A DNA stretch of 64,000 nt from a virus. This document shows positions 5,729-52,927 of the stretch, piece after piece. How positions within the stretch are numbered: position 1 is the first letter of the stretch; each line of letters begins with the position of its first letter. The notes under the pieces were generated by a model that was given only the letters and a program-made list of their open reading frames with translations, made no database searches and was not told the origin of the DNA. Made by a program: the position numbers and the translations under genes. Location: the IMG/VR virus record IMGVR_UViG_3300042558_005646, one strand, 5' to 3'.

Positions 5729-5755
5729 TTCTAGATAACTTGTTTTTACACCTTT
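5729..5755 (-). promoter_or_regulatory. Putative late promoter AAAGG-N17-TAGAA
   Basis: Same bipartite motif recurs upstream of several structural genes. Confidence 0.55.
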
Positions 5756-9980: not shown

Positions 9981-10007
9981 TTCTATTTTTGACCTATTAA
10001 GACCTGT
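9981..10007 (-). promoter_or_regulatory. Putative late promoter ACAGG-N17-TAGAA
   Basis: Matches the recurrent motif with identical spacing. Confidence 0.5.
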
Positions 10008-12468: not shown

Positions 12469-13011
12469 TTAATACCAAGTTTGATTGGATGGTTTATTAC
12501 CGAAAAGGATAGGGTCTTGTTTACCTTTTAATGCTTGATAATATCCTTCACCATTCTTAAAATGTTGAAAGCTATTTCCTTTTTCAATTGAACCCATACT
12601 TTGTGGATCTCTATTATTGTTTTGCTGTCTTGAGCCTTCCAATTGATCTTCTAATGTTGTGACTTCAGGCGCATCATGATATGGAGAGTGTCTACGAGCT
12701 TCTATAGATGCAGATTGAGGGGAAATAATAAATTGTCCATTATTATCCATATTCATTCTATGAGGCCGTTGAACCAAGAGATCCCAAATTTCTTTTTGTT
12801 GTTCTTGATTCATATTGTAATATTGATCAAGAGTTTTGCCCATTTTATCTAAAATGCCAGCAAGTTCATCATAAAGTCCTGCAGGCTCATTGTCTACATC
12901 ATGAATTTCATCTATTTTAGAATTTGATGTTGAATCAATAGTGTCAAGAGGCTTTTCTCCTGACAAATTGACGCCACCACCAATTTGGGCTAAAACTTGC
13001 TTATACCACAT
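12469..13011 (-). CDS. Putative internal head protein with MWY leader
   Basis: Starts MWYKQVLAQ; contains LEDQLE; within the head cluster. Confidence 0.45.
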   Translation of the reverse strand: MWYKQVLAQIGGGVNLSGEKPLDTIDSTSNSKIDEIHDVDNEPAGLYDELAGILDKMGKTLDQYYNMNQEQQKEIWDLLVQRPHRMNMDNNGQFIISPQSASIEARRHSPYHDAPEVTTLEDQLEGSRQQNNNRDPQSMGSIEKGNSFQHFKNGEGYYQALKGKQDPILFGNKPSNQTWY

Positions 13012-17653: not shown

Positions 17654-17680
17654 TTCTAAATTTAATGCTCAAATTCCTTT
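17654..17680 (-). promoter_or_regulatory. Putative late promoter AAAGG-N17-TAGAA
   Basis: AAAGGAATTTGAGCATTAAATTTAGAA. Confidence 0.6.
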
Positions 17681-23648: not shown

Positions 23649-23787
23649 TTATCTTATCTCCCTTAGATTTTTTTGATCCCCACCAACAAAAGGACTTAAA
23701 TAAATAAACCTCTAGACGTGCTTGAAAAGTCGTAGAGGTTTTTGTGGAACATATTAGTATAATACGAGAATTTCAAAAATATATTCC

Positions 23788-23824: not shown

Positions 23825-26536
23825 ATGTGGTACTCAAAAATTATCGAATCTGCAACAGCCTGGGACGTTTTATCTACTAAAGAAGTTTTGTGGGCTGGCT
23901 CTTTCTCTAGAACTTTCAAAGATTTTTCATTTTACGATCCAAATGAAAACCCTACTATGACTGCTATGCTCAAGTTTATAGGAGATATAGAAAAGGGCAG
24001 AACTGGTGATTCAATTATTGATAAATATCTTGAGAAAGCGAAAAATGACGGCAGTACTTTGTCTGACATTTCAATTTTTTCTTATAATTTATCAAAATTT
24101 ATTGATAATGAAATGAAAAAACAAGGAAGTTCTGCTAATACAGATATGATGAAAGTATTAGACTTTCTTGGCAAACTCAATGAATATATAAAATCAAGAG
24201 GCGGAAATGGCATAGAACTTGGTGATAGAATTCCAGATATTGACAAAGTAAAATCATCTGTCAATAGCACTCTTGGTATGGGATTTACCACATTAAATTT
24301 ACTCTTGAAAAAAGGCACGAGTATGAATGAGGCACTAGCTATGTTTATCATTCGTGGAGATGATGTTAACTTACTAGGATATCCTCTTTCTCAACAAAGA
24401 AACTTGCTTGTTTATCAACTTCTTGAAGCCAGACCAGAATTAGAATATTTTCAAAATCAAGAAAATGTTGTAAATTTAATTAGACGTGGAGAGGGAAAAT
24501 TCTATTTTCCAAACATCAAAGAATACATTTTTTCAGGTATTACCGAAAGCAAAATTTTAGAAATTGTTTTTGAGTTATTATTGAAAGATTTTGATCAAGT
24601 AGATGTTGCAAGTATGCTTCACTATCTTCCAAACAAAACTCAAATTAACGTAGCTGTAAAAATCGATGAATACCCACAGTACGATAGATTTTGCCAAAAT
24701 ATAGCAGAAAAGTTATACTCAAGTATCGGTGAGTATGATTTTGATCAAGATGTTTTATTAATAAGAAAACTTAAATCTTTCAAAAAATTTATGGATCTTA
24801 TTGATAGTAAAGGTGATCAATGCTCTCCTTTATTTATAATCAAGGGAATTGCAAAACCACAAGTTATTATAAATTATTTAGATAAAAATCCAGAAGATTA
24901 TGAAAAATTTGATGTTAATTTATTAGACAGCCTTGGCAGTGAAATTAAAAACCAAATTCAACAAAAAGGCAAAGCTGCAAAAGCCAGAATTCAATCTGAT
25001 GGTTTTGCTCTTTTAGAAAAAGCACAACAAGAAGGAGTTATAAAAATAATTAAAGCTTCTGACACTGCTTTTAATTATGCTTACGGAAAAGGACCAAAAA
25101 GAGACCCAGCACCACAAGGTATGTCTGAAAGCGAACAAAGACAAAAAGAAAAGTCTGATGAAATATTTTCAAAGTTCCAACAGTCATATGAAGATCGTAT
25201 GCAACAAGAAGCTCCATTTGCTGGCGTAAGTACTGAAGATATAAGTAAATATGCTGATCAAATGGTGATTGTAGAATTTAGCACTTATAGCTTAAAGAAT
25301 TTTATGCGAGAAAATAATGTGCCTAAATTAAAAATAGGTCCTGTAGATTTTACTGATGAGAAATGGGGTGGATTATTTGTACCTAAATTTCCAACAAAAG
25401 ATATGGGTCCACGTCCAGCAATTATTATCAAAACAGATATATGGTCTCAATTAGCTTTTCATAGAAAATTAGCTGAAAATATTGGAATGGATGCTAATCA
25501 TTATCTTGAAGCCACTAAAAGACACGAAGTAGCTCACGCATTACAGTATCTTCAATCTGGAGATTTGATGATGGAAGATTCTGTAGCTTTAAATCCAGAA
25601 TTGACTCCTGAAGAAGCTTACATATCTGATCCTTCTGAACTATATGCAAGAATTCACGGAGATATACCTTATCTGGCTAGAATCTTTGATGCTCATATTG
25701 GAAAATTGATGGCAGATCCAAAAATCTATCAAGCTGCCAAAGAACAATGGATTCTAGATATCCAGGATGAAATGATTCACTTGATGTCAGGTGGAACAAA
25801 TGCTAAAAGATTACTTGAAGATATGGAGACTGGTAGATTTGGAACTTACACCTCATCTACAGGACAAACAATTACATTAACTGATCCTCTTGAAGTAATT
25901 AATAAAAAATTACAGCGTCAAAGAAACAGATTGGAAATGATTTTTCACGAGACTTTTCAAATTCAAGGAAGACGTGATTATAGAAGAGGGTTGATTGGTA
26001 AGAAAAATCAATTAGCTCAACAAATTGAATCTACCCCTATTTATTCTTCTGAAAGAACCAAACTCGAAAAAGAATTAAAAGAAGTTGAAACAAATTTAGT
26101 TGAATCAGGGAGAATGCTTATCTTTGATGTGAAAGATGTATCTGAGGCTGTAGTTGAGGGATATTTAGCAGATTACTATAGCAAAATTGCGAAAGCTGTA
26201 GCAGATGGCTTACTTACAACAGATACAATTAATCCTCAAGGCGAAGATCAAAGAGTAGAAAATCAGCAATTACGTGAAGAAGCTAAAAAACAAGAACCAC
26301 CAACAGCACAAGACATTAAACAACACGCAAGATTTCAAATTCAACAAACAGAGCCTATCCCGAGTGGCAGAAAGATTGACGTTATTATTCCAAGATATAA
26401 AGGTACTGGAAGACCACCTGGCAATTTTCCAGGCTTTGATGATGCAGAAAAAGATGATCAACAAGTTGATATTACTATAGAAAGAAAAGAAGACAAAATT
26501 GCTAGCGTTTTCAATTACAGAAAATTAATCAAATAA
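23825..26536 (+). CDS. Large MWY-leader protein with a zincin metallopeptidase motif
   Basis: MWYSKIIESA leader; RHEVAHALQ followed by SDPSELYAR. Confidence 0.55.
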   Translation: MWYSKIIESATAWDVLSTKEVLWAGSFSRTFKDFSFYDPNENPTMTAMLKFIGDIEKGRTGDSIIDKYLEKAKNDGSTLSDISIFSYNLSKFIDNEMKKQGSSANTDMMKVLDFLGKLNEYIKSRGGNGIELGDRIPDIDKVKSSVNSTLGMGFTTLNLLLKKGTSMNEALAMFIIRGDDVNLLGYPLSQQRNLLVYQLLEARPELEYFQNQENVVNLIRRGEGKFYFPNIKEYIFSGITESKILEIVFELLLKDFDQVDVASMLHYLPNKTQINVAVKIDEYPQYDRFCQNIAEKLYSSIGEYDFDQDVLLIRKLKSFKKFMDLIDSKGDQCSPLFIIKGIAKPQVIINYLDKNPEDYEKFDVNLLDSLGSEIKNQIQQKGKAAKARIQSDGFALLEKAQQEGVIKIIKASDTAFNYAYGKGPKRDPAPQGMSESEQRQKEKSDEIFSKFQQSYEDRMQQEAPFAGVSTEDISKYADQMVIVEFSTYSLKNFMRENNVPKLKIGPVDFTDEKWGGLFVPKFPTKDMGPRPAIIIKTDIWSQLAFHRKLAENIGMDANHYLEATKRHEVAHALQYLQSGDLMMEDSVALNPELTPEEAYISDPSELYARIHGDIPYLARIFDAHIGKLMADPKIYQAAKEQWILDIQDEMIHLMSGGTNAKRLLEDMETGRFGTYTSSTGQTITLTDPLEVINKKLQRQRNRLEMIFHETFQIQGRRDYRRGLIGKKNQLAQQIESTPIYSSERTKLEKELKEVETNLVESGRMLIFDVKDVSEAVVEGYLADYYSKIAKAVADGLLTTDTINPQGEDQRVENQQLREEAKKQEPPTAQDIKQHARFQIQQTEPIPSGRKIDVIIPRYKGTGRPPGNFPGFDDAEKDDQQVDITIERKEDKIASVFNYRKLIK

Positions 26537-27091
26537 GAAATCTTCACCAAGAATTAGTTTCATTTGTTCAAGGGCTTTTGATAATCTTTTTGAAAAAGCC
26601 CCTTGAGTAATACCTAGAGTTTCAGCACATTCTTTTTGATCTAATCCATCGAAGAAATAGACTTGGATTACTTCCTTGCTTTTTTCACTCAATTGATCCA
26701 TAGCTTGATGTATACAAATTACATTGTCAATCTTATTAAATGGATCTTCATATTCTTCAGGAAAATAATCATCATCTGAAATTTCTTCTTTTGGGAAATA
26801 TTTATCAGCGGTATATCTGAATAAATTTATGTCTATTCTTGTTGATAAGAAATAAGAAAAATAAGATAACTTTGGATCATATTGGTCGATTAATTTCTTG
26901 AGAACAAATATAGAATCACTTAAAATATCTTCTCTATGCGAAGAAAGCCGAGATTCTTTTTGAACAATTCTTTTAACTGATGAAATAAAGAGAGGTTTAT
27001 AGAATTCATATAATTCAAAAAGTGCTTCTTCATTTCCAGCTTTGTATTTATGTAAAAGCTGGTTGATCTCATCGTAATTATTCTCGGCCAT
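26525..27091 (-). CDS. Sigma-70 family (ECF-size) sigma factor ending in EDFLFD
   Basis: Region 2-like (YKAGNEEALFELY, DQYDPKLSYFSYF) and region 4 HTH (LDQKECAETLGITQGAFSKRL). Confidence 0.85.
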   Translation of the reverse strand: MAENNYDEINQLLHKYKAGNEEALFELYEFYKPLFISSVKRIVQKESRLSSHREDILSDSIFVLKKLIDQYDPKLSYFSYFLSTRIDINLFRYTADKYFPKEEISDDDYFPEEYEDPFNKIDNVICIHQAMDQLSEKSKEVIQVYFFDGLDQKECAETLGITQGAFSKRLSKALEQMKLILGEDFLFD

Positions 27092-27098
27092 ACAGAGA

Positions 27099-28100
27099 TT
27101 ATACAGAGGTGAGTTTTGAAATTAGAATGGGAACTGAATGATTGACTGAACCATTTGAGCGTAAATCAATAATACTATCAACAAGCAAAGTAATCATTTT
27201 CGAGTATTGCGCTGGGCTGTACATATTATCTTTGCTCGATTGGATACGAATTCTTATGGGATTTTGAACTTTCACTGTGAAAGTAGGCTCTTTGTATTCA
27301 TCACTTAAATACTTGCCCAGCAAATCCCGTAATTCAACTTTTTCTTGAACTTCAGTAAAGTGGTGATATTTCTTATTAGTCTCTGATATAACAAGCATAA
27401 AGTTTAATTGACTTAATAAGACAAGTAAGAATCCTTGCTCTCCCATAGAATCAATAAGAAGATCTATTTTTGTCAAGCAATAATCCAAATTCTTATTCAT
27501 CAGTTGTTCGATAAATTCGAATATGTCGCATTCTTCATTGAAAGACGCATTTTGGATGTCACGCAGAAATATTTTGTCTGTGTAAGAAATTATCTTTTCT
27601 AATTCCTTGAAAAGAATATCAATGTCATAGCAGATAATTTCTTTCTTACTGCCTGATTGCTTAGACTTGATACGCAATACAGGGCAGACCTCAACAAGAT
27701 GATTCAAAGTCTCACCATTGATGTTTGCGTTGTTTTTTAACACATAATTATTTATATGACGTTTGAGTGCATTGAAATCTCCGACAAGTGGATAACTACA
27801 ATCAAAAATCAAGTTATTCTTCTTGGCTTTTGCTATAAGAGACAATCTTCCATCAAAACTATCATCTTCATACAAAATGACGTGATTGCTGCCTAATTTC
27901 TCACTCTTTTCTTGAATAAGCTTGATATCTTCATTAGAAATATTTGTATGAATATATACATTTTTATTATCAAAGAATTTAGAATAATTATTAATTATCT
28001 TTTCAACATTGTTATCAATAAGAAGAATAAGACCAGGGAATTCTTCCTTGATCTTATTCAATGCTAGAGTTGTTGATCCGTAATAAATTCTTGGAAACAT
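27099..28100 (-). CDS. holA: DNA polymerase III delta-like clamp loader subunit
   Basis: ELEKIISY and DIFEFIEQL delta-like motifs; adjacent to the clamp gene. Confidence 0.65.
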   Translation of the reverse strand: MFPRIYYGSTTLALNKIKEEFPGLILLIDNNVEKIINNYSKFFDNKNVYIHTNISNEDIKLIQEKSEKLGSNHVILYEDDSFDGRLSLIAKAKKNNLIFDCSYPLVGDFNALKRHINNYVLKNNANINGETLNHLVEVCPVLRIKSKQSGSKKEIICYDIDILFKELEKIISYTDKIFLRDIQNASFNEECDIFEFIEQLMNKNLDYCLTKIDLLIDSMGEQGFLLVLLSQLNFMLVISETNKKYHHFTEVQEKVELRDLLGKYLSDEYKEPTFTVKVQNPIRIRIQSSKDNMYSPAQYSKMITLLVDSIIDLRSNGSVNHSVPILISKLTSV

Positions 28101-28101
28101 A

Positions 28102-29199
28102 TTAATCCATTGGGAAAAGAATGTGCTTAAAGTTTTCAGCTTCGAGCATCAATAAAATAAAATCATTATGCTTTATAAAATTAAGTTTTAATTTCTTGCT
28201 ATCGAGCAAATCCAAAACTCTTATCAAATGAGAAGAAACATAAGATACAGATAAAATTTCATAATTTTCAACTTCAATGGTATCTACAACAGCATTTTTT
28301 TCATTACTTGTTGCTGATATCACGATCTTGTTGATGTCAAGAGTTAAGTTTATCATATGAGAATTTGTAATATTGGATACAAACTTAACACTCTTTACCA
28401 ATGCATCTTTTTCTAAATCGAGTGAAAGAAAAAATTGATCACTGAAAAATTGATTGAAGTTTGAAAAGATCTTCTCGTAAGTATTTTTCTCAAGATTGCA
28501 AGATAATTCTCCACCATTCCAGGTCAAATAAATTTTGCTATTATAAAGAGAGAAAACGATGCCAGGTATTTTTTCAATATAATAAAGAACTACATCTGAA
28601 ATTGTTTTGGAAATCAGATAAGATTGTTGTAATTCATATTTTTTACCAAACACGCTAATTCTATGCTTGTCTGAAGATTGAGTGTTTATTTTTCCATCTT
28701 CTATAAACCAAAGAATAGAAGTGTAAGGATGTTCATCAAAATCAGGTGCGCAAGAAAATGAAGTCATTTTTATACTGTGAACAAAATCATCTGCTGTAAT
28801 ATCTAGCGTTTCTAAATCTTGAGAAAAACTAACAATAAAATTATCAACAGGAACGGTAGCCAAAGATACTCTAGTTTTCTTGTTTCCAAAGATGAGTAAA
28901 TTGTCGGCAGGGCTATAAATAAATTGAACTTCTTCTGTTGGAAAGTTATTTAAAGCATTGAAAAAAGAAGACACGTCTAAGCCAAATGTTCCATCTTCTG
29001 TAGGTTGAACATTTGTAAGTAAAAACTTTGAACAACAGAAATTGTTTTCTGTCTGTACGTAAAGCTTCCCATCAATTGAATGAAAAATAAGACTACTTGA
29101 TGCAGCTTTATTTTCACGCATAGATAGCTTCGATTTTTCGATTTTATTAAGTAAGGCAAAACAAACGAGATGTTCTGCCTTATTCAACTTAAATTTCAA
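28102..29199 (-). CDS. dnaN: DNA polymerase III beta sliding clamp
   Basis: About 365 aa with three-domain beta-clamp spacing; SSDKHRIS equivalent of ATDGHRLA; TTG start overlapping the purA stop. Confidence 0.75.
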   Translation of the reverse strand: MKFKLNKAEHLVCFALLNKIEKSKLSMRENKAASSSLIFHSIDGKLYVQTENNFCCSKFLLTNVQPTEDGTFGLDVSSFFNALNNFPTEEVQFIYSPADNLLIFGNKKTRVSLATVPVDNFIVSFSQDLETLDITADDFVHSIKMTSFSCAPDFDEHPYTSILWFIEDGKINTQSSDKHRISVFGKKYELQQSYLISKTISDVVLYYIEKIPGIVFSLYNSKIYLTWNGGELSCNLEKNTYEKIFSNFNQFFSDQFFLSLDLEKDALVKSVKFVSNITNSHMINLTLDINKIVISATSNEKNAVVDTIEVENYEILSVSYVSSHLIRVLDLLDSKKLKLNFIKHNDFILLMLEAENFKHILFPMD

Positions 29200-30191
29200 T
29201 GCAGTTGTCCTTGAAATTGGATAAATACACCAGGAAGAACCATTCCAACTTCTTTCCAAATATTAGAAACAAATGTATCTTCATTTGCACAAGAAATCAA
29301 CATATTATTTTCGTAATAATTCCAAGCGCTGTCAACTTGTCGAAGAACATCCATTTTGTTGATAATAAGCTTTGTAACACCATTCATTTGACAAGCAGTT
29401 ATGACTTCTTGGATATTTAGCCAGTCGATTTGTCTTGGTCGTCCGGTTGTGGCTCCATACTCTTGACCAATTTCTCTGAGTTGTTCAAATCGCTCGTCAT
29501 CTTTTTGGTATCCTTTAGCTCCAACATAGGTAGAATAACACTTGATAACCCCGACAACATCCCGTACTTGCTTATAATTGAAACCATTGTTTAATACTGC
29601 TCCTACTCCAGTGTTTGATGAAGTGACATAAGGATAATCACCAAAGTCAATATCAAGCCAATATCCTTGAGCACCTTCAGCTAAAAATTTCTTGGGTGAA
29701 GAATGAATAAGGCTGTGCATATCAACAAGATATGGTGCCAATTCTGGAACATCTTTAGCACGAAGACCTGTGCGACCAACTTTGTCTTTATAACAAGGGC
29801 CATTTCCAGTGCGAGTTGTTCCAATAGTTGTATCTTTGGAATCTTCGTCAATATGTTCTTGGGTAATTATGTGTGCGTTTTCTGCAATCTTTAAAAGCGA
29901 TGTATTGAATCCAAGTCCTTCAAGATACGCAAGTTCGTCAAATAATTTTTGCGTATTGATAACACAACCATTACCAATGACACTAGGAATGCCATGCAGA
30001 ACGCCACAAGGAACAAGATGCGTAACAATTTTCTCTCCATTGATGTAAATTGTATGACCAGCATTTCCTCCACCGTTAAAACGGACAACGTAGTCATATT
30101 CACCTGATGCAGCCATTTGATTGGCTATTTTGCCCTTGCCTTCATCACCATACTGCATACCGATAACTACATCAACAATTGAAGTTTCCAT
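29196..30191 (-). CDS. purA: Adenylosuccinate synthetase, short form
   Basis: GMQYGDEGKG, GGGNAGHT, EGAQG, YPYVTSS, EYGATTGRPR. Confidence 0.92.
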   Translation of the reverse strand: METSIVDVVIGMQYGDEGKGKIANQMAASGEYDYVVRFNGGGNAGHTIYINGEKIVTHLVPCGVLHGIPSVIGNGCVINTQKLFDELAYLEGLGFNTSLLKIAENAHIITQEHIDEDSKDTTIGTTRTGNGPCYKDKVGRTGLRAKDVPELAPYLVDMHSLIHSSPKKFLAEGAQGYWLDIDFGDYPYVTSSNTGVGAVLNNGFNYKQVRDVVGVIKCYSTYVGAKGYQKDDERFEQLREIGQEYGATTGRPRQIDWLNIQEVITACQMNGVTKLIINKMDVLRQVDSAWNYYENNMLISCANEDTFVSNIWKEVGMVLPGVFIQFQGQLH

Positions 30192-30197
30192 ATGCAC

Positions 30198-30227: not shown

Positions 30228-30851
30228 TTATAATTCTATGTCTTTTTCTTCGTCAAAAAACTCTCTATCATCAATACCATTTACAACAACATCAACGTGT
30301 GTATCTGGGAATTTTTGTCGAACTTTTTCCATTGCTTCTTCTTTGCTGTAATCTTCAAGGGTCAAATTTGAAGTGAAAACTACATCGTGAGAAATTTCTT
30401 CGGCATCTTCTTCCTCACCATATAAATTTTCTAATCCAGGGATAGAAAGCTGATCTGTTAAGAGTTTGCCCTCTTTGTCAGAACCTTTTGATAATGATTT
30501 TAATGATAAAGGATCTAAAAAGAAAAATTTCCATACTCCACTTTCAGGAAATAAAATAATTTGAGGATAAATTGCAAAATGTCTTCTTGTTCCTTTGGAT
30601 CTTTCAACAAGTTGTTCCATAGGATCTTTTGATGGATCTACAGTGAACTTTTCATCTCCAAGAACCTCTACAATATCTCTGCCTTGTTTTCTTGCTTTAG
30701 TTAATGCAAAATCAGAATATGTCTCTGGATTTCTATACACAGTATCAAAGTCTAAATCTGATTGATCTATTGCAACTTTGGTAAATTTGTCAGCAAGTTT
30801 GAAGCATCCTAAATTGTCTAGGATAGAAGCAGTGCGAAGAAAATTTATCAT
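30228..30851 (-). CDS. Hypothetical protein with LDxxG leader
   Basis: MINFLRTASILDNLGCFKLADKFTKVA. Confidence 0.5.
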   Translation of the reverse strand: MINFLRTASILDNLGCFKLADKFTKVAIDQSDLDFDTVYRNPETYSDFALTKARKQGRDIVEVLGDEKFTVDPSKDPMEQLVERSKGTRRHFAIYPQIILFPESGVWKFFFLDPLSLKSLSKGSDKEGKLLTDQLSIPGLENLYGEEEDAEEISHDVVFTSNLTLEDYSKEEAMEKVRQKFPDTHVDVVVNGIDDREFFDEEKDIEL

Positions 30852-31555
30852 AACTTACTTTTTGGCACTTTATGAGTAGCATCCTTCTTCTCATCATCTT
30901 TGAATTGAGTATAAACTTCAGATGCTTTTTTTCTAATTCTTGTAAGTGCATTGTCAACACATTTGGCTGGAACACTTAGTGTTTGTGAAATTTCTTTATA
31001 TGAAGAATTGTGGCCATACTCAACAAATATATCTGCCTCTAATGGCGTAAGCTTGTCCATCAATAGTTCTGAGTTTAATTCTAGTTCTTCTCTAACAATA
31101 AGATCTTCTACTAAATTTACTTCTGGAGATTCATCATAAGGATTTTTCTTATCAGGGATATAGTCTCCCAAAGAATGGAAATTACCATCGTCATTTAAAA
31201 TAAAAGGAGCGTCAAGCGAAATAGAATCATTCAAAGCTGAATTCTTCATTCTTTTCGCTGACGCTATAGCTGTTGCAAGATGTCTTTTACAAACTAAATT
31301 TACGCAAAAGTTCTTAAATGTTGTATCTTTAGTACAATCGTAGGAATTTACCGCTTTAAATACACCTAATCTCAATTCTTGCATTACATCTTCTCTGTCT
31401 CCACCGACTATGAAAAAGTGTGGTGCAATCTTTTTGAGATCTGGTTCTACCATCTTGAGCAGTTTTTTAAAGGCTGCTTCATTACCTGCTTTTGCTCTAT
31501 TGACTATTCTTACTATTCTGAAATCTTCGGTTGCCATCAAAACTCCCGAAGGCAT
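30848..31555 (-). CDS. sigH: SigH-like sigma factor
   Basis: GGDREDVMQELRLGVFKAVNSYD, KRHLATAIASAKRMKNSALNDSISLDAP and SYKEIS...KCVDNALTRIRKK align with recalled B. subtilis SigH motifs. Confidence 0.8.
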   Translation of the reverse strand: MPSGVLMATEDFRIVRIVNRAKAGNEAAFKKLLKMVEPDLKKIAPHFFIVGGDREDVMQELRLGVFKAVNSYDCTKDTTFKNFCVNLVCKRHLATAIASAKRMKNSALNDSISLDAPFILNDDGNFHSLGDYIPDKKNPYDESPEVNLVEDLIVREELELNSELLMDKLTPLEADIFVEYGHNSSYKEISQTLSVPAKCVDNALTRIRKKASEVYTQFKDDEKKDATHKVPKSKL

Positions 31556-31577: not shown

Positions 31578-32639
31578 TTACGCCTTTTCCCTATTTGCGT
31601 ACTTTTCTATAATTTTGAGGATACCTGTAGTTGCAACAATATCCTCAGAGACAGTTTGCCTTATATCTTTTGAAATGTTATACAATTGTTCTGCGATATC
31701 TATAAGCAACAAAGTATCAACAGACTTGGCTATTTCTTCTATATCAGGGACTCTTTCACCCTTTTTTGTCTTTATTACAACATATCTGAATGCTGTTATG
31801 AAGATTTGAGATGTTTCAAGTAATAAATTACCTAAGTTTCTTCCCTCTGCATTGGAAGCTTGAATTATTCTAAAAGCATTGGCAAAATCTTCATTGATAA
31901 CACAAAAAGAAAGATCAATTGCTAATTGTTTTGGTGATCTATCAAGCAACTCTCTAATGTTTTCTTCTGATATATCACTCATAGAAGCTTGTTCAAGAAT
32001 AGAAAGAGCAGTTCTAGCACTTCCTTCAGCATCAGTTGCAATAAGATTCAAGGCTTCTTCGTCATAAACAAGATTTTCTTTCTCACAAACTTCTTCTAAT
32101 AATTGAACAAGATTTTGCTTGGTCAATTTCTTCATAAGAAAAGTCTGACAACGAGTATGTATTGCACGAAGAATTTTATGTGGGTCAGTTGTGCAAAAGA
32201 AAAACTTTACATACGCTGGTGGTTCTTCAGTAAGCTTAATTAGAGATGTTTGCGCTTGAGTGGTAAGCATTTGAGCTTCATCAAGAATAAAAATCTTGTA
32301 CTTACCCAAAGTTGGAGCAAGACGAGATAGTTGAACTACATTTTCTCGAATATGATCAACACCATTATTTACAGCGCAATTAATTTCATAAACATCAGGA
32401 TGCTCATCACTCAACACCATATCCTTCAAATCATCTTGATCGTCATTACAAAGAAGATGAGCTGAAGCAACACGGGCAAGAGTTGTCTTACCAGTGCCAG
32501 GAGGACCAGCTAAGATGTAAGCATGAGTAGTCCTTTTATTCTGAATCTGTGTTTCAAGAATTTCAGCAGATTTACTACCCTTGATATCCTTAAATGTTCT
32601 AGGGCGATATTTATTGTAATAGCTTTGACTAATCATCAT
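31578..32639 (-). CDS. dnaX: DNA polymerase III gamma/tau subunit (gamma-sized)
   Basis: KYRPRTF, GPPGTGKT, ILDEAQML, EEPP, RCQ. Confidence 0.9.
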   Translation of the reverse strand: MMISQSYYNKYRPRTFKDIKGSKSAEILETQIQNKRTTHAYILAGPPGTGKTTLARVASAHLLCNDDQDDLKDMVLSDEHPDVYEINCAVNNGVDHIRENVVQLSRLAPTLGKYKIFILDEAQMLTTQAQTSLIKLTEEPPAYVKFFFCTTDPHKILRAIHTRCQTFLMKKLTKQNLVQLLEEVCEKENLVYDEEALNLIATDAEGSARTALSILEQASMSDISEENIRELLDRSPKQLAIDLSFCVINEDFANAFRIIQASNAEGRNLGNLLLETSQIFITAFRYVVIKTKKGERVPDIEEIAKSVDTLLLIDIAEQLYNISKDIRQTVSEDIVATTGILKIIEKYANREKA

Positions 32640-41353: not shown

Positions 41354-42328
41354 TTAATTTTCCTCAATTCCAATCAAAGACATTTTCGTCTTTATATTTT
41401 CTACAGCTTTATTGAATTCTGAAGCTGTACAACCATACATTTTAGAGTCATATTTGAGTTTTGATGAACCATTCAAAATAGTAGTAATAATTTTATTTTC
41501 AACATCATTTAAAGATAAACTTAGCAAATTATTTACTTTATTATCATCTTTTAAACTATCGTAATAACAAACATCTTCACTATCATCTTCTTCCGACATA
41601 TATACGCTTAAGGCTCTTGGTGAAACTGTTTGATAGTCTGGATAAAGTTCATTGAATTTCTGAAAAAGCATAGATGAGTGCTTTGATAAAATATGCTTTT
41701 TGATAATTGCTGTTCTTTGAATTATCATACATTTTTCGCAGCATCCATCTTTTTTATCTTCACAATCTTCTAAGCATTCATAAGATCTTGGCATTTTATG
41801 AGACTTGCAAAAATTACATCTTTCAAGCTCTTCTAAAACTATACCCGTGTTTCTTAAATGGTCCCAAAGAATATGGTGATGATGTAACAAAATATGTGTG
41901 GAAAGAGGGTTCACCCACTTATCACAAATTGGACATTTTTGTGATGGATTTCTCTTACCAGCATTATCAGCTTTTACTAAGTTGATATAATTGTGCTGTA
42001 AAGCTCCAATAAAATAGTTTTTGAATTCCCCACTTCCTCCATAACGAGATACTTTTCTCGTATTGCGGGGTTTCCAATTTGATAAGACATTACAGAAAAT
42101 CTTTATATAATCTGATGCAAAGTCTTCTTGTGAATCATACAAATAATGGTATTGATTCCACCATTCTTGCATGTGTAAATAAGGCGGATAAAGTTTACAT
42201 ACTTCTTTGTAATTGCGATCTATCCGCCATTTGTTTCCAGTCAATAAAGCTTCTTGGTATTTTAGAATTGCCTTTTCTAAATTTTCTTGAGTCCTTATCT
42301 TTGCTTGTTTTGTAATATCCTCGTTCAC
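41354..42328 (-). CDS. Sigma-like protein with a zinc-finger insertion
   Basis: Region 2-like SQEDF...EFKNYF, central CPIC...H..HH and Cys clusters, C-terminal HTH-like helices. Confidence 0.5.
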   Translation of the reverse strand: MNEDITKQAKIRTQENLEKAILKYQEALLTGNKWRIDRNYKEVCKLYPPYLHMQEWWNQYHYLYDSQEDFASDYIKIFCNVLSNWKPRNTRKVSRYGGSGEFKNYFIGALQHNYINLVKADNAGKRNPSQKCPICDKWVNPLSTHILLHHHHILWDHLRNTGIVLEELERCNFCKSHKMPRSYECLEDCEDKKDGCCEKCMIIQRTAIIKKHILSKHSSMLFQKFNELYPDYQTVSPRALSVYMSEEDDSEDVCYYDSLKDDNKVNNLLSLSLNDVENKIITTILNGSSKLKYDSKMYGCTASEFNKAVENIKTKMSLIGIEEN

Positions 42329-49681: not shown

Positions 49682-52600
49682 CTAATCAAATAAACCATCA
49701 CTCAATAAAGTCTTGATTGTTGATGAAGTAGATTTAGTCTTTCTTTCTTTGTTGTTAATTATATCATCATATGACACAGAATTTTTCTCTGAAAGTTTCT
49801 GCATCCTTAGAGAATTCTTTTCTTCTCTATTTCTTTCTGCAACAATATTGTCCCAGTATTCCATGAAATCTTCTACAACTTCAAATTGTAAAGTATCAGA
49901 CAAGCAACTTAATGCATCATGTTCTGCAAGAAATGCTACCATACCACGATTAGGACGAGCTCTGTAAGCTAAATCCTTACAATCTTCATACGGTTGATGC
50001 TCTACAATATCGATAGCTCTAGCACCTACACCCTTGATAGCAGAAAGAGGAAGTAAAATTTCGCCCTTTTTGTTTACAGTGGTTTCAACACCAGATTCAT
50101 TTACATTAGCTGCTTTTACTGGAATACGATCCATGCTACATTCTTTAAGTAGAACAGCAAGTTTATCTTCATCAAGTCTATCAATTTGAATACAAGCAGC
50201 CAACCACTCAGAAGGATAATAATTACGTAAATAAGCAGTGTAATAAGAAAGTAAAGCATACGAACAAGCGTGAGATCTATTAAACGCATATCCACCAAAT
50301 TTAGCCATCAATGCAAGAACTTCATCAACAATTGCTTCTGGAATTCCACGCTCTTTGCTTTTAGTAGAAAATAAATTACAAACATCATCAAAATCTTTTC
50401 CTGATTTTTTTGAAATTGCTTTACGTAATTTATCAACTTGCTGCCATGTGAAACCAGCCATATCACGAGCTAAGAACATAGCTTGCTCTTGATAAACCAT
50501 AATTCCATAAGTTACAGAAAGATGCTTTTCAATAATAGGATGAGCATATTGAATTGTTTCTGGATGTCTTTTGCCTTCTGCGTATTGAGGAATATAATCC
50601 ATAGGACCAGGACGATAAAGCGCAGCAACAGCAATCAAGTCTTCAATATTACTAGCATTTACATCACGAAGAGCTTGTTGCATTCCTTTTGATGCAAATT
50701 GGAATACGCTTGCAGTTTTACCTCTAGCATAAATGTTCTTGAAAATTTTTGCATCATCAAGATTAATCTTCTTGAAATCGATATCTTTATTATGTAGCCT
50801 CTTGATATGCTCCAAACATAAAGCAACTTGATGAAATGCAGCAAGTCCAAGAAAATCATATTTGACAAGCCCTACACGTTCGACATTTTTCATATCGTAT
50901 GCAGAACATAGGTTGCCTTTTGAATTTTCTATTGGAGCGTGAAGATACAGGGGTTCAGAACATACAAGAACACCAGAAGCGTGAACACCAAAATTAGAAT
51001 ATGTTCCAACTAATTGAATGGCGCTATCTAATTCTTCTTTCCACTGGTTATAGTAATGCTTAAACTCTTCATTTTCTTGAATAGTTTCTTCGATTGTTGT
51101 TCCTGGTTTTTTAGAAATACAAGCAGAAATCTTTAAAGCTTGATTGTGAAAATCATTAGGGTATGTATCTTGAAAATTTGTTGAAGCTTTAAGACATCCA
51201 ACAACAGAGTTTTTTGCAGCGTATTTACCCCAAGTACCAATTTGCGCTACGTGATCTTCTCCAAATCTATCTTTAGTCCAATCGATTACTTCAGAACGAC
51301 GAGAATCATCAATATCAGTATCAACGTCAGGAAGAGCGGCAACTTTAGAGATTACAAGACCATCACTAGGCATTTCTTCAGTAATTTCTAAAATATGAGC
51401 AGTCCAAAGTTGAGATTCATTATTCTTAGTTTTAATGCCCATTTTTGCAAGATTATAAATGTATGAAGAAAGACCTTGATTCTCCAATACCCATAATTCT
51501 TTTTCAATTTCAGGCTCAAATTTCTTATATTCAGGAAAATATTCTAACCATTGTTTGGTGATATTTCTTAACTTCTTACTGTAAGGAATTTGATCCATTT
51601 CACCATATTCATTGATGAATTGTTTTGCTGGAAATTCAGATATATCTATACTGTATTGAGTTCCACGGCCAGGGTTTAGGAAGCGTTCAAACATCAAATT
51701 CCAACGTACTGGATCTACATTACAAACCTCAAGACAGAAGTTTACTAATGATCCAACACCAGATCCACGAATGCCAAAATGGATGTCTTTATGCTTCATG
51801 AACTCGACTAATTCTCTTTGAATTAAGAAGTAGTCAGTTACACCCATGTACCAAATTTGACGCAATTCACTATCAAGACGAGCTAGATAATTGTTAGTAA
51901 ATAAATTTGCTTGACGTAAACCAGAGATACAAAGGAAAGCTAAATAAGCTTCATTTGCTTTGTGGTGAGGAAGTTTAGATTTCCAGAAATTATTGAACTC
52001 TTGATTGTCTTTTGGAATACGAGCAGCTGGAAGTAAGTGAGGAACGTCAAGCTTAAAGAAATCTTCCACCATTTCAGATATAAGGACAGAATTCTTTAAT
52101 GCATCAGGCACACTCGAACCAAAAATCTTATGCATATCATCATAAGGTTTTAGATAGAATTGATGACTTCCGTAAGCTTCTTTTTTGCCATTCTTCTTGT
52201 CAGTTCTGCTGTCTCTTTGATCACGCATTTGGATAAGAACATCATGGATTTTCCAGTCTAGTTTATCAAGATAGTGAACATCATTAGAAGCTACAACTGG
52301 AAGATCATATTTATTGGCAATATCTAGGAGGAAGGGCGTATTGTGTGCTTGTTCATCAATTCCGTGATGTTGCAATTCAATGAAATATCGATCTTGAAAT
52401 ACATTTTTGAAGCGATTGACAACACTATTAGCTGTTTCAACATCTTCTCTCATTAGGGATTGATTAAGTTCAGAAGCAAGACAGCCTGAAAGAGCAATTA
52501 CGCCTTCAGAGTGCTTTTCAATACAGCCCCAGTCAACACGAGGAGAATAATAGAAGGCATCAGGATCATTGCCAAGAGCGGAAAGAGAAAGAAGATTCTT

Positions 52601-52927
52601 ATATCCTGTTTCATTTTGAGCAAGAAGAGTTAGATGGTTTAATTTTTTACGCCGACCATCTTCTGTTTTACTCTTGTCAAAACGATCTTCACAAGTGTAA
52701 ACTTCTATGCCAATGATAGGTTTGATTGGATCTAAGGTGCTATAGGAGCGACAAGCTTCAACAAATTCTACAGCACCACCCATTTTTCCATGATCTGTAA
52801 TTGCTGCAGCTCGGAATCCCATTTCTCGTGCTTTAAGTGCATATTTGGCTGGAGTAGGGAGAGCATCTTGTATGGAAAAATGCGTATGGGCGTGTAAATG
52901 AACGAAATCTTTATTAGAACTACACAT
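49682..52927 (-). CDS. dnaE: DNA polymerase III alpha subunit
   Basis: PHP motifs HAH, TDHG, SNDVH; RGSG, FERFLNP, PDVDTD, HASG, KYDFLGL, YAFNRSHA; ends DGLFD. Confidence 0.96.
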   Translation of the reverse strand: MCSSNKDFVHLHAHTHFSIQDALPTPAKYALKAREMGFRAAAITDHGKMGGAVEFVEACRSYSTLDPIKPIIGIEVYTCEDRFDKSKTEDGRRKKLNHLTLLAQNETGYKNLLSLSALGNDPDAFYYSPRVDWGCIEKHSEGVIALSGCLASELNQSLMREDVETANSVVNRFKNVFQDRYFIELQHHGIDEQAHNTPFLLDIANKYDLPVVASNDVHYLDKLDWKIHDVLIQMRDQRDSRTDKKNGKKEAYGSHQFYLKPYDDMHKIFGSSVPDALKNSVLISEMVEDFFKLDVPHLLPAARIPKDNQEFNNFWKSKLPHHKANEAYLAFLCISGLRQANLFTNNYLARLDSELRQIWYMGVTDYFLIQRELVEFMKHKDIHFGIRGSGVGSLVNFCLEVCNVDPVRWNLMFERFLNPGRGTQYSIDISEFPAKQFINEYGEMDQIPYSKKLRNITKQWLEYFPEYKKFEPEIEKELWVLENQGLSSYIYNLAKMGIKTKNNESQLWTAHILEITEEMPSDGLVISKVAALPDVDTDIDDSRRSEVIDWTKDRFGEDHVAQIGTWGKYAAKNSVVGCLKASTNFQDTYPNDFHNQALKISACISKKPGTTIEETIQENEEFKHYYNQWKEELDSAIQLVGTYSNFGVHASGVLVCSEPLYLHAPIENSKGNLCSAYDMKNVERVGLVKYDFLGLAAFHQVALCLEHIKRLHNKDIDFKKINLDDAKIFKNIYARGKTASVFQFASKGMQQALRDVNASNIEDLIAVAALYRPGPMDYIPQYAEGKRHPETIQYAHPIIEKHLSVTYGIMVYQEQAMFLARDMAGFTWQQVDKLRKAISKKSGKDFDDVCNLFSTKSKERGIPEAIVDEVLALMAKFGGYAFNRSHACSYALLSYYTAYLRNYYPSEWLAACIQIDRLDEDKLAVLLKECSMDRIPVKAANVNESGVETTVNKKGEILLPLSAIKGVGARAIDIVEHQPYEDCKDLAYRARPNRGMVAFLAEHDALSCLSDTLQFEVVEDFMEYWDNIVAERNREEKNSLRMQKLSEKNSVSYDDIINNKERKTKSTSSTIKTLLSDGLFD

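Follow-up and report, generated by a model that had tools for sequence, protein, structure and literature searches.

A conserved C-terminal tail on a phage sigma factor encoded beside a sliding clamp: region 4.2 terminus or clamp-binding peptide?

The viral record IMGVR_UViG_3300042558_005646 of the IMG/VR database, of which a stretch of 64,000 nucleotides (nt) was analysed (called the window), contains at positions 26525-29199 three tightly packed genes on the minus strand. They encode a DnaN-type sliding clamp (dnaN), a holA-like clamp-loader subunit and a sigma factor of 188 amino acids (aa), which we name sigmaT for "tailed sigma factor". The locus raises the question of what the short acidic and hydrophobic tail of sigmaT is for. 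A first-pass annotation of the sequence had proposed that sigmaT and the phage polymerase DnaE share a peptide that binds the clamp, and that late transcription is thereby coupled to replication. The reading we adopt, to which we give about an even chance of being correct, is that the D-F-L element of the tail belongs to the sigma family itself, as its region 4.2 terminus, and is not a dedicated clamp-binding peptide. The features on which the question depends are the following.

26525..27091, minus strand: sigmaT, 188 aa (Pfam, NCBIfam, AlphaFold model)
26528..26554, minus strand: C-terminal tail of sigmaT, its last nine residues, ending F-L-F-D (open reading frame translation)
49682..52927, minus strand: DnaE polymerase, 1081 aa (domain composition)
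49685..49708, minus strand: C-terminal tail of DnaE, its last eight residues, ending G-L-F-D, the presumed clamp-binding motif (translation, conservation)

The sigma factor and its tail

By homology sigmaT is a member of the sigma-70 family and not a homolog of gp55, gp33 or Mor/C. It matches Pfam Sigma70_r4_2 with an E-value of 2.7e-11 and the NCBIfam sigma70-ECF (extracytoplasmic function) superfamily, TIGR02937, with 76 bits against a cut-off of 42.9. Pfam, PHROGs and NCBIfam returned sigma families only, and no Mor/C homology was found in them. In the AlphaFold model, sigma-2 occupies approximately residues 1-98 and sigma-4 residues 121-181, with a disordered linker at 102-119 between them, and the model matches the solved sigma factors SigB, sigma-E and sigma-70 (Z 9.8-11.4).

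The annotation had stated that the 188-aa sigma factor and DnaE share the ending D-x-L-F-D and that the sigma gene comes directly after dnaN and holA on the same strand. Both translations confirm the former, and the latter agrees with the gene identities and coordinates. Its proposal would also have suffered if the tail were not conserved in orthologs; instead, the tail core L-G-acid-D-F-L was found to be nearly invariant within a large clade of about 100 orthologs (at least 50% identity). The last zero to two residues vary, being F-D in about half of these orthologs and L-D, S-F, a single residue or none in the others. Because of this variation, the invariant part of the tail is D-F-L, and not the L-F-D that is common with DnaE. 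More distant clades of sigmaT retain an acidic-hydrophobic end in other forms. Two related lineages (G015; and G016, which is 347 kilobases (kb) long and 99% complete) and locus L116 encode a sigma factor without the tail though their DnaE has one, and all three retain the order dnaN-holA-sigma-orf237.

Comparison with the region 4.2 terminus

The tail was compared with the ends of other sigma factors by sequence and by structure. In the MAFFT alignment it falls on residues 604-613 of Escherichia coli sigma-70, which are the last ten and include L607, and the invariant phenylalanine of sigmaT is aligned with L607 itself. The tail is also aligned by MAFFT with the conserved segment S/T-E-V-Y-x-Q-F/Y of the second sigma factor of the phage. 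In the structure comparison, residue 188 of the sigmaT model is paired with residue 609 of sigma-70, and the end of sigmaT is likewise paired with the C-termini of several sigma-4 domains of known structure. Since the model is aligned to the ends of known sigma-4 domains, the tail is not an unusual extension. The alignment of the two termini comes from MAFFT and the structure comparison only, while BLASTP of sigmaT against the C-terminal part of sigma-70 gave no local alignment.

The likeness to the end of sigma-70 region 4.2 (604-613) lies in the same position after the recognition helix and in a core of an acid or serine, an aromatic residue and leucine. The differences are that the phage tail is shorter by 2-4 residues, that it follows a glycine and not an H-P-S-R turn, and that sigmaT is a two-domain factor like those of the ECF and group 3 types, in which a terminal segment is not the rule. 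A comparable ending (acid or serine, aromatic, aliphatic) is present in 8 of the 83 outgroup sigma representatives, or about 10%. The substitution L607P, together with R541C, was used to disrupt the contact that region 4 makes with the beta-flap (bioRxiv 10.1101/2022.01.24.477500). The second sigma factor of the phage has the canonical segment S-E-V-Y-x-Q-F followed by a basic extension, without a hydrophobic end. A sigma factor of Bacillus phage Goe8 was considered as another terminal likeness and was discarded, the match being internal to a longer protein and hence uninformative.

Comparison with the DnaE tail

DnaE consists of PHP, palm, fingers and helix-hairpin-helix (HhH) domains, and is without the OB fold and the tau-binding domain of bacterial alpha subunits. 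The HhH domain is followed by a basic low-complexity linker and then by the short tail. The linker is variable, while the tail behind it is conserved in all clades; in the close clade it takes the form of two hydrophobic residues followed by S-D-x-L-F-D. In the alpha subunit of E. coli, the internal clamp-binding motif is located just after the HhH domain. As the DnaE tail is found directly after this domain, where the motif is expected, it is very probably the clamp-binding motif of the polymerase.

Whether the likeness between the two tails exceeds chance was evaluated in a 358-kb relative with 392 open reading frames (ORFs). When a profile of the DnaE tails was run over the C-termini of all of them, sigmaT ranked 5th, and the proteins placed above it included a tail-tube protein, a chaperonin of GroEL type and a small ORF; the reverse profile, made from the sigma tails, ranked DnaE 3rd. 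The tail-tube protein and the chaperonin are to be taken as chance matches, and the graded likeness of the tails lies within the chance range. Cognate pairs of sigma and DnaE tails did not resemble each other significantly more than non-cognate pairs did (p of 0.06 with 14 non-independent pairs and 0.11 with 7 lineages). An alternative register, consisting of two hydrophobic residues, a small residue, two acids and two hydrophobic residues, fits both the sigma factor and DnaE better, and it also suits lineages G006 and G018. Neither tail follows the bacterial consensus Q-L-[SD]-L-F (or Q-L-x-L-x-L), both being without the glutamine and without the leucine at position 2. In the same 392 ORFs, no third protein carries the tail as a T4-type co-activator would. 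The second sigma factor, which is without such a tail, likewise lies amid clamp-loader genes; therefore, adjacency alone is uninformative.

The clamp and the delta subunit

28102..29199, minus strand: DnaN-type sliding clamp, 365 aa, with a TTG start (PHROG 947, PDB beta clamps)
27099..28100, minus strand: holA-like clamp-loader delta subunit, 333 aa (NCBIfam, Pfam and PDB matches)
27969..27980, minus strand: K-F-F-D in delta, residues 41-44 (low-confidence alignment to L73-F74 of E. coli delta)

The clamp matches PHROG 947 with an E-value of 7e-20, and the profile of its family (21 members) matches 47 beta clamps of PDB, the best with an E-value of 2.4e-21 over positions 7-370. With bacterial clamps it shares only about 20% identity. 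The assignment of delta is weaker than that of the clamp, yet consistent: holA matches NCBIfam holA (TIGR01128) with 44 bits and an E-value of 1.8e-11, which is below the curated cut-off of 80, 11 of 14 orthologs match Pfam DNA_pol3_delta_C (best E-value 7e-7), and the match to the PDB delta chain 3zh9_B has an E-value of 0.005. The delta family has a nearly invariant element, S-x-hydrophobic-[FI]-D, which appears as K-F-F-D in the delta of the window. It was found by hhalign that F-F-D falls on L73-F74 of E. coli delta, with low confidence, and the start of this alignment agrees with the NCBIfam one. In the delta-beta structure, L73 and F74 of E. coli delta are the residues that plug the clamp.

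Comparison with known clamp-dependent systems

In phage T4, late transcription is activated by the clamp through gp45 (the clamp), gp55 (sigma-2-like), gp33 (which mimics sigma-4 on the beta-flap) and gp43 (the polymerase) (PMC2988020, PMC7892883), and the essential contact with the clamp is made by gp33, at the sigma-4 site on the flap (PMC2988020). The window resembles T4 in that clamp, loader, polymerase and a sigma-family factor are encoded by the phage, in the hydrophobic-acidic C-termini of the polymerase and the sigma factor, and in a tail carried by the module at the flap site, as in the case of gp33. On the other hand, the clamp here is a dimer of DnaN type and not a trimer of gp45/PCNA type, and the loader genes (dnaX and holA-like) are of bacterial type and not of gp44/gp62 type. 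A single sigma factor combines sigma-2 with a complete sigma-4, while gp55 has sigma-2 only, and there is no gp33 homolog here. The promoters here also appear to have a -35-like element, and both the binding of the tail and clamp dependence are putative.

According to the annotation, a DnaN-type clamp is not known to have been described in late transcription. This is out of date, as late transcription of phage Mu was reported to depend on the E. coli beta clamp through MuC (Ho and Harshey, PNAS 2026, PMC12867686). Mu and the window have in common a DnaN-type clamp that stimulates late transcription, as shown for Mu and proposed here, via short motifs of a transcription factor. However, MuC binds DNA as an activator and acts together with sigma-70 and the clamp of the host, its motifs being close to the consensus Q-x-D-L-F, whereas a sigma factor and the clamp of the phage itself would be involved here. 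When compared to the clamp motifs of bacterial Pol III alpha, Pol II/IV and delta, the DnaE tail and the F-F-D of delta are at the positions of their E. coli counterparts, but the phage signature consists of acids followed by hydrophobic-F-D, lacking the glutamine and the position-2 leucine of Q-L-[SD]-L-F. In our literature search, no paper was found that describes a sigma-70-family factor with a clamp-binding motif.

Explanations for the tail

If the D-F-L element is the region 4.2 terminus, sigmaT would be an ordinary phage sigma factor that is made together with the replication genes and redirects the RNA polymerase of the host towards phage promoters with -35-like and -10-like elements, and the pattern AAAGG-N17-TAGAA before the head genes would be its candidate target. 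The D-F-L terminus may stabilise sigma-4 or its docking on the beta-flap, in the manner of the sigma-70 segment with L607, and the likeness of the sigmaT and DnaE tails may then come from the acidic and hydrophobic nature common to the two kinds of motif. The flap-docking role, the promoter specificity and the timing of sigmaT are what we infer here.

Several observations weigh against this reading. The nearest orthologs outside the main clade (30-32% identity) stop at the recognition helix, and therefore sigma-4 can work without a tail. The conserved hydrophobic residues of the tail are consecutive and without the spacing of an amphipathic helix, and the tail has an AlphaFold confidence score (pLDDT, predicted local distance difference test) of about 58, with the last three residues below 50, as is expected of a flexible peptide. 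Only sigmaT and DnaE, of the 392 ORFs of the 358-kb relative, end in an acid followed by hydrophobic-F-D, though this end-anchored pattern was chosen after the fact. Because F-F-D of delta is aligned with the clamp plug of E. coli, a phage-specific clamp signature hydrophobic-F-D is plausible from the sequence comparison, and sigmaT of the window's clade ends exactly in it. These points can be accommodated if the tail binds to the phage DnaN in the hydrophobic pocket that the DnaE tail and the delta plug use, which we consider a possible but doubtful arrangement. Clamps loaded at forks or nicks would slide to the promoters and touch sigma-4 from upstream, and efficient transcription of the late genes would require replicating DNA; we hold this sequence of events only tentatively. 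In sigma-4, the recognition helix points its C-terminal end towards activators bound upstream, and a tail on sigma-4 is rightly placed because gp33 of T4 holds the sigma-4 site on the flap, so that clamp coupling would be geometrically sensible. It also draws on the near-invariance of the tail core, on the alternative register that G006 and G018 share, on the position of the DnaE tail, on the tight packing of dnaN, holA and sigmaT, which all 80 of the loci and distant relatives preserve, and on the precedents of T4 (PMC2988020) and Mu MuC (PMC12867686). With less than even probability, T4-style coupling would thus have been rebuilt from bacterial-type parts, with loaded clamps acting as mobile activators at late promoters of the -35/-10 kind. 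However, the profile similarity does not rise above chance, the tails show no significant co-variation, orthologs in the same synteny do without the tail, and what is invariant in the sigma tail is D-F-L, not the L-F-D common with DnaE, its last residues being variable. In addition, the tail is aligned with the canonical sigma-70 terminus and misfits the bacterial consensus. For a shared epitope speaks the exact ending, which only two of the 392 proteins have; against it speak the profile rank and the lack of significant co-variation.

The strong conservation and the low model confidence of the tail would suit a different docking partner, such as the host beta clamp, an anti-sigma factor or co-activator of the phage, or another surface of RNA polymerase. 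MuC is a phage transcription factor that uses the host clamp, and at least two phage sigma factors here need to be ordered in time. We consider such a partner improbable, as no candidate was identified and the motif deviates from the clamp-binding consensus of bacteria. In favour of coincidence, in which the ending would have arisen neutrally from composition and have no specific role, acidic-hydrophobic C-termini are common and chance matches outrank sigmaT in the profile, but L-G-x-D-F-L belongs to the best conserved parts of the protein down to about 50% identity, which makes this explanation very improbable. As for the clamp-coupled late transcription of the annotation, conservation, synteny, the DnaE tail position and F-F-D of delta speak for it, while the chance-range likeness, the missing co-variation, the tail-less orthologs, the sigma-70-like terminus and the similar ending of about 10% of unrelated sigma factors speak against it. 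It is a reasonable hypothesis that the evidence does not favour.

The two readings differ in what they would mean. If the tail binds the clamp, direct tethering to a beta-type sliding clamp would be seen for the first time in a sigma-70-family factor, and sigmaT would be the third independent case, after T4 and Mu, in which a replication clamp times the late genes; its occurrence in a jumbo-phage group would suggest that phages have come repeatedly to activation of transcription by a clamp. If the tail is the usual region 4 terminus, the locus is an ordinary, neatly organised phage operon of replication and sigma genes. The acidic-hydrophobic C-termini of sigma factors would then mimic clamp motifs, and binding data would be needed before they are read as such.

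Locus, lineage and gene order

Upstream of dnaN in the same operon are purA, a 207-aa ORF (orf207), the second, SigH-like sigma factor and dnaX.

29196..30197, minus strand: purA, adenylosuccinate synthetase-like, the upstream neighbour (named from the translation alone)
30848..31555, minus strand: second sigma factor, SigH-like, 235 aa (Pfam, NCBIfam)
31578..32639, minus strand: dnaX, clamp-loader ATPase (Pfam, PHROG)

The gaps are 1 nt between dnaN and holA and 7 nt between holA and sigmaT, all on the same strand. The order dnaX-sigma2-purA-dnaN-holA-sigmaT-orf237 (sigma2 being the second sigma factor) is kept in all 80 of the related viral loci and is also seen in much more distant relatives. 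At least 80 related contigs are present in IMG/VR, the longest of 358 kb (89% complete according to CheckV) and 379 kb, and the lineage is one of jumbo phages. The GenBank phages contain no close relative of the window and none of the clamp. The region is the operon for replication and transcription control of an uncultured jumbo phage of roughly 400 kb.

The stop codon of purA overlaps the TTG start of dnaN as T-T-G-A (window 29196-29199). The same overlap is present in more than 50 loci, that is, in all that were checked, and it suggests that the clamp is translationally coupled to purA.

The genes dnaN and holA (window 27099-29199) diverge much faster than their neighbours, in L026/G003 and in other relatives. 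Between G003 and the window, the identity is 90% for DnaE, 92% for purA and 93% for the second sigma factor, compared with 41% for dnaN, 62% for holA and 68% for sigmaT. This points to a hot spot or a cassette exchange centred on the clamp.

Candidate promoters and leader element

17654..17680, minus strand: AAAGG-N17-TAGAA, candidate late promoter upstream of a 356-aa head-module gene (motif)
9981..10007, minus strand: ACAGG-N17-TAGAA, with one mismatch, upstream of a 1378-aa head-module gene (motif)
5729..5755, minus strand: AAAGG-N17-TAGAA, candidate late promoter upstream of a 554-aa head gene (motif)

Exact copies of AAAGG-N15-19-TAGAA number 4 in the window against 1.65 expected, which is not significant by itself. 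In the relative, 4 of the 8 exact AAAGG/TAGAA copies fall in non-coding DNA, which makes up 6% of the genome, and at orthologous head genes both pentamers are kept while the spacer has diverged. The support for the pattern comes from these two sources only, the intergenic enrichment in the relative and the conservation at head genes. From its sequence, AAAGG-N17-TAGAA is a fair candidate for a phage promoter with -35-like and -10-like boxes.

A different, promoter-like element, GGAATA-N17-TATTAT, is situated directly after the sigmaT gene and before orf237 (window 23706-23787, minus strand). Next comes a G+C-rich hairpin that has runs of T on both strands, and both the element and the hairpin are conserved in all clades of relatives. 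As a general class of promoter GGAATA-N17-TATTAT was rejected, only 2 intergenic copies being present in the 358-kb relative. The terminator-like hairpin in the leader suggests attenuation or antitermination of the packaging and head operon, or else a terminator that has an unusual element upstream of it.

Two further series of elements were noticed in the relative G001 (IMGVR_UViG_3300027759_006101). At about 185-197 kb, outside the window, one strand has a dense array of the heptamer TTTCGAG, repeated dozens of times at intervals of 100-300 nt. It spans a block of small genes, and genome-wide 11 copies are in upstream regions against 1 expected. At about 159-176 kb, promoters of host type (TTGTCAAA, about 17 nt, a TATAAT-like box, some with an extended -10) stand in series before small genes, and this is probably the early region.

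Other open reading frames of the window

The ORF at window 41354-42328 has no match in Pfam or NCBIfam. A 903-aa ORF, beginning with M-W-Y, is antisense to the operon at window 23825-26536 (plus strand). In relatives (loci L013, L014, L018, L022, L024 and L026) it is found either in the gap between sigmaT and orf237 or in the gap between orf207 and purA, and in others it is in neither; in this it resembles a movable cassette. Four unrelated proteins of the window, whose genes start at 12469, 23825, 34695 and 36649, begin with M-W-Y and then a basic residue.

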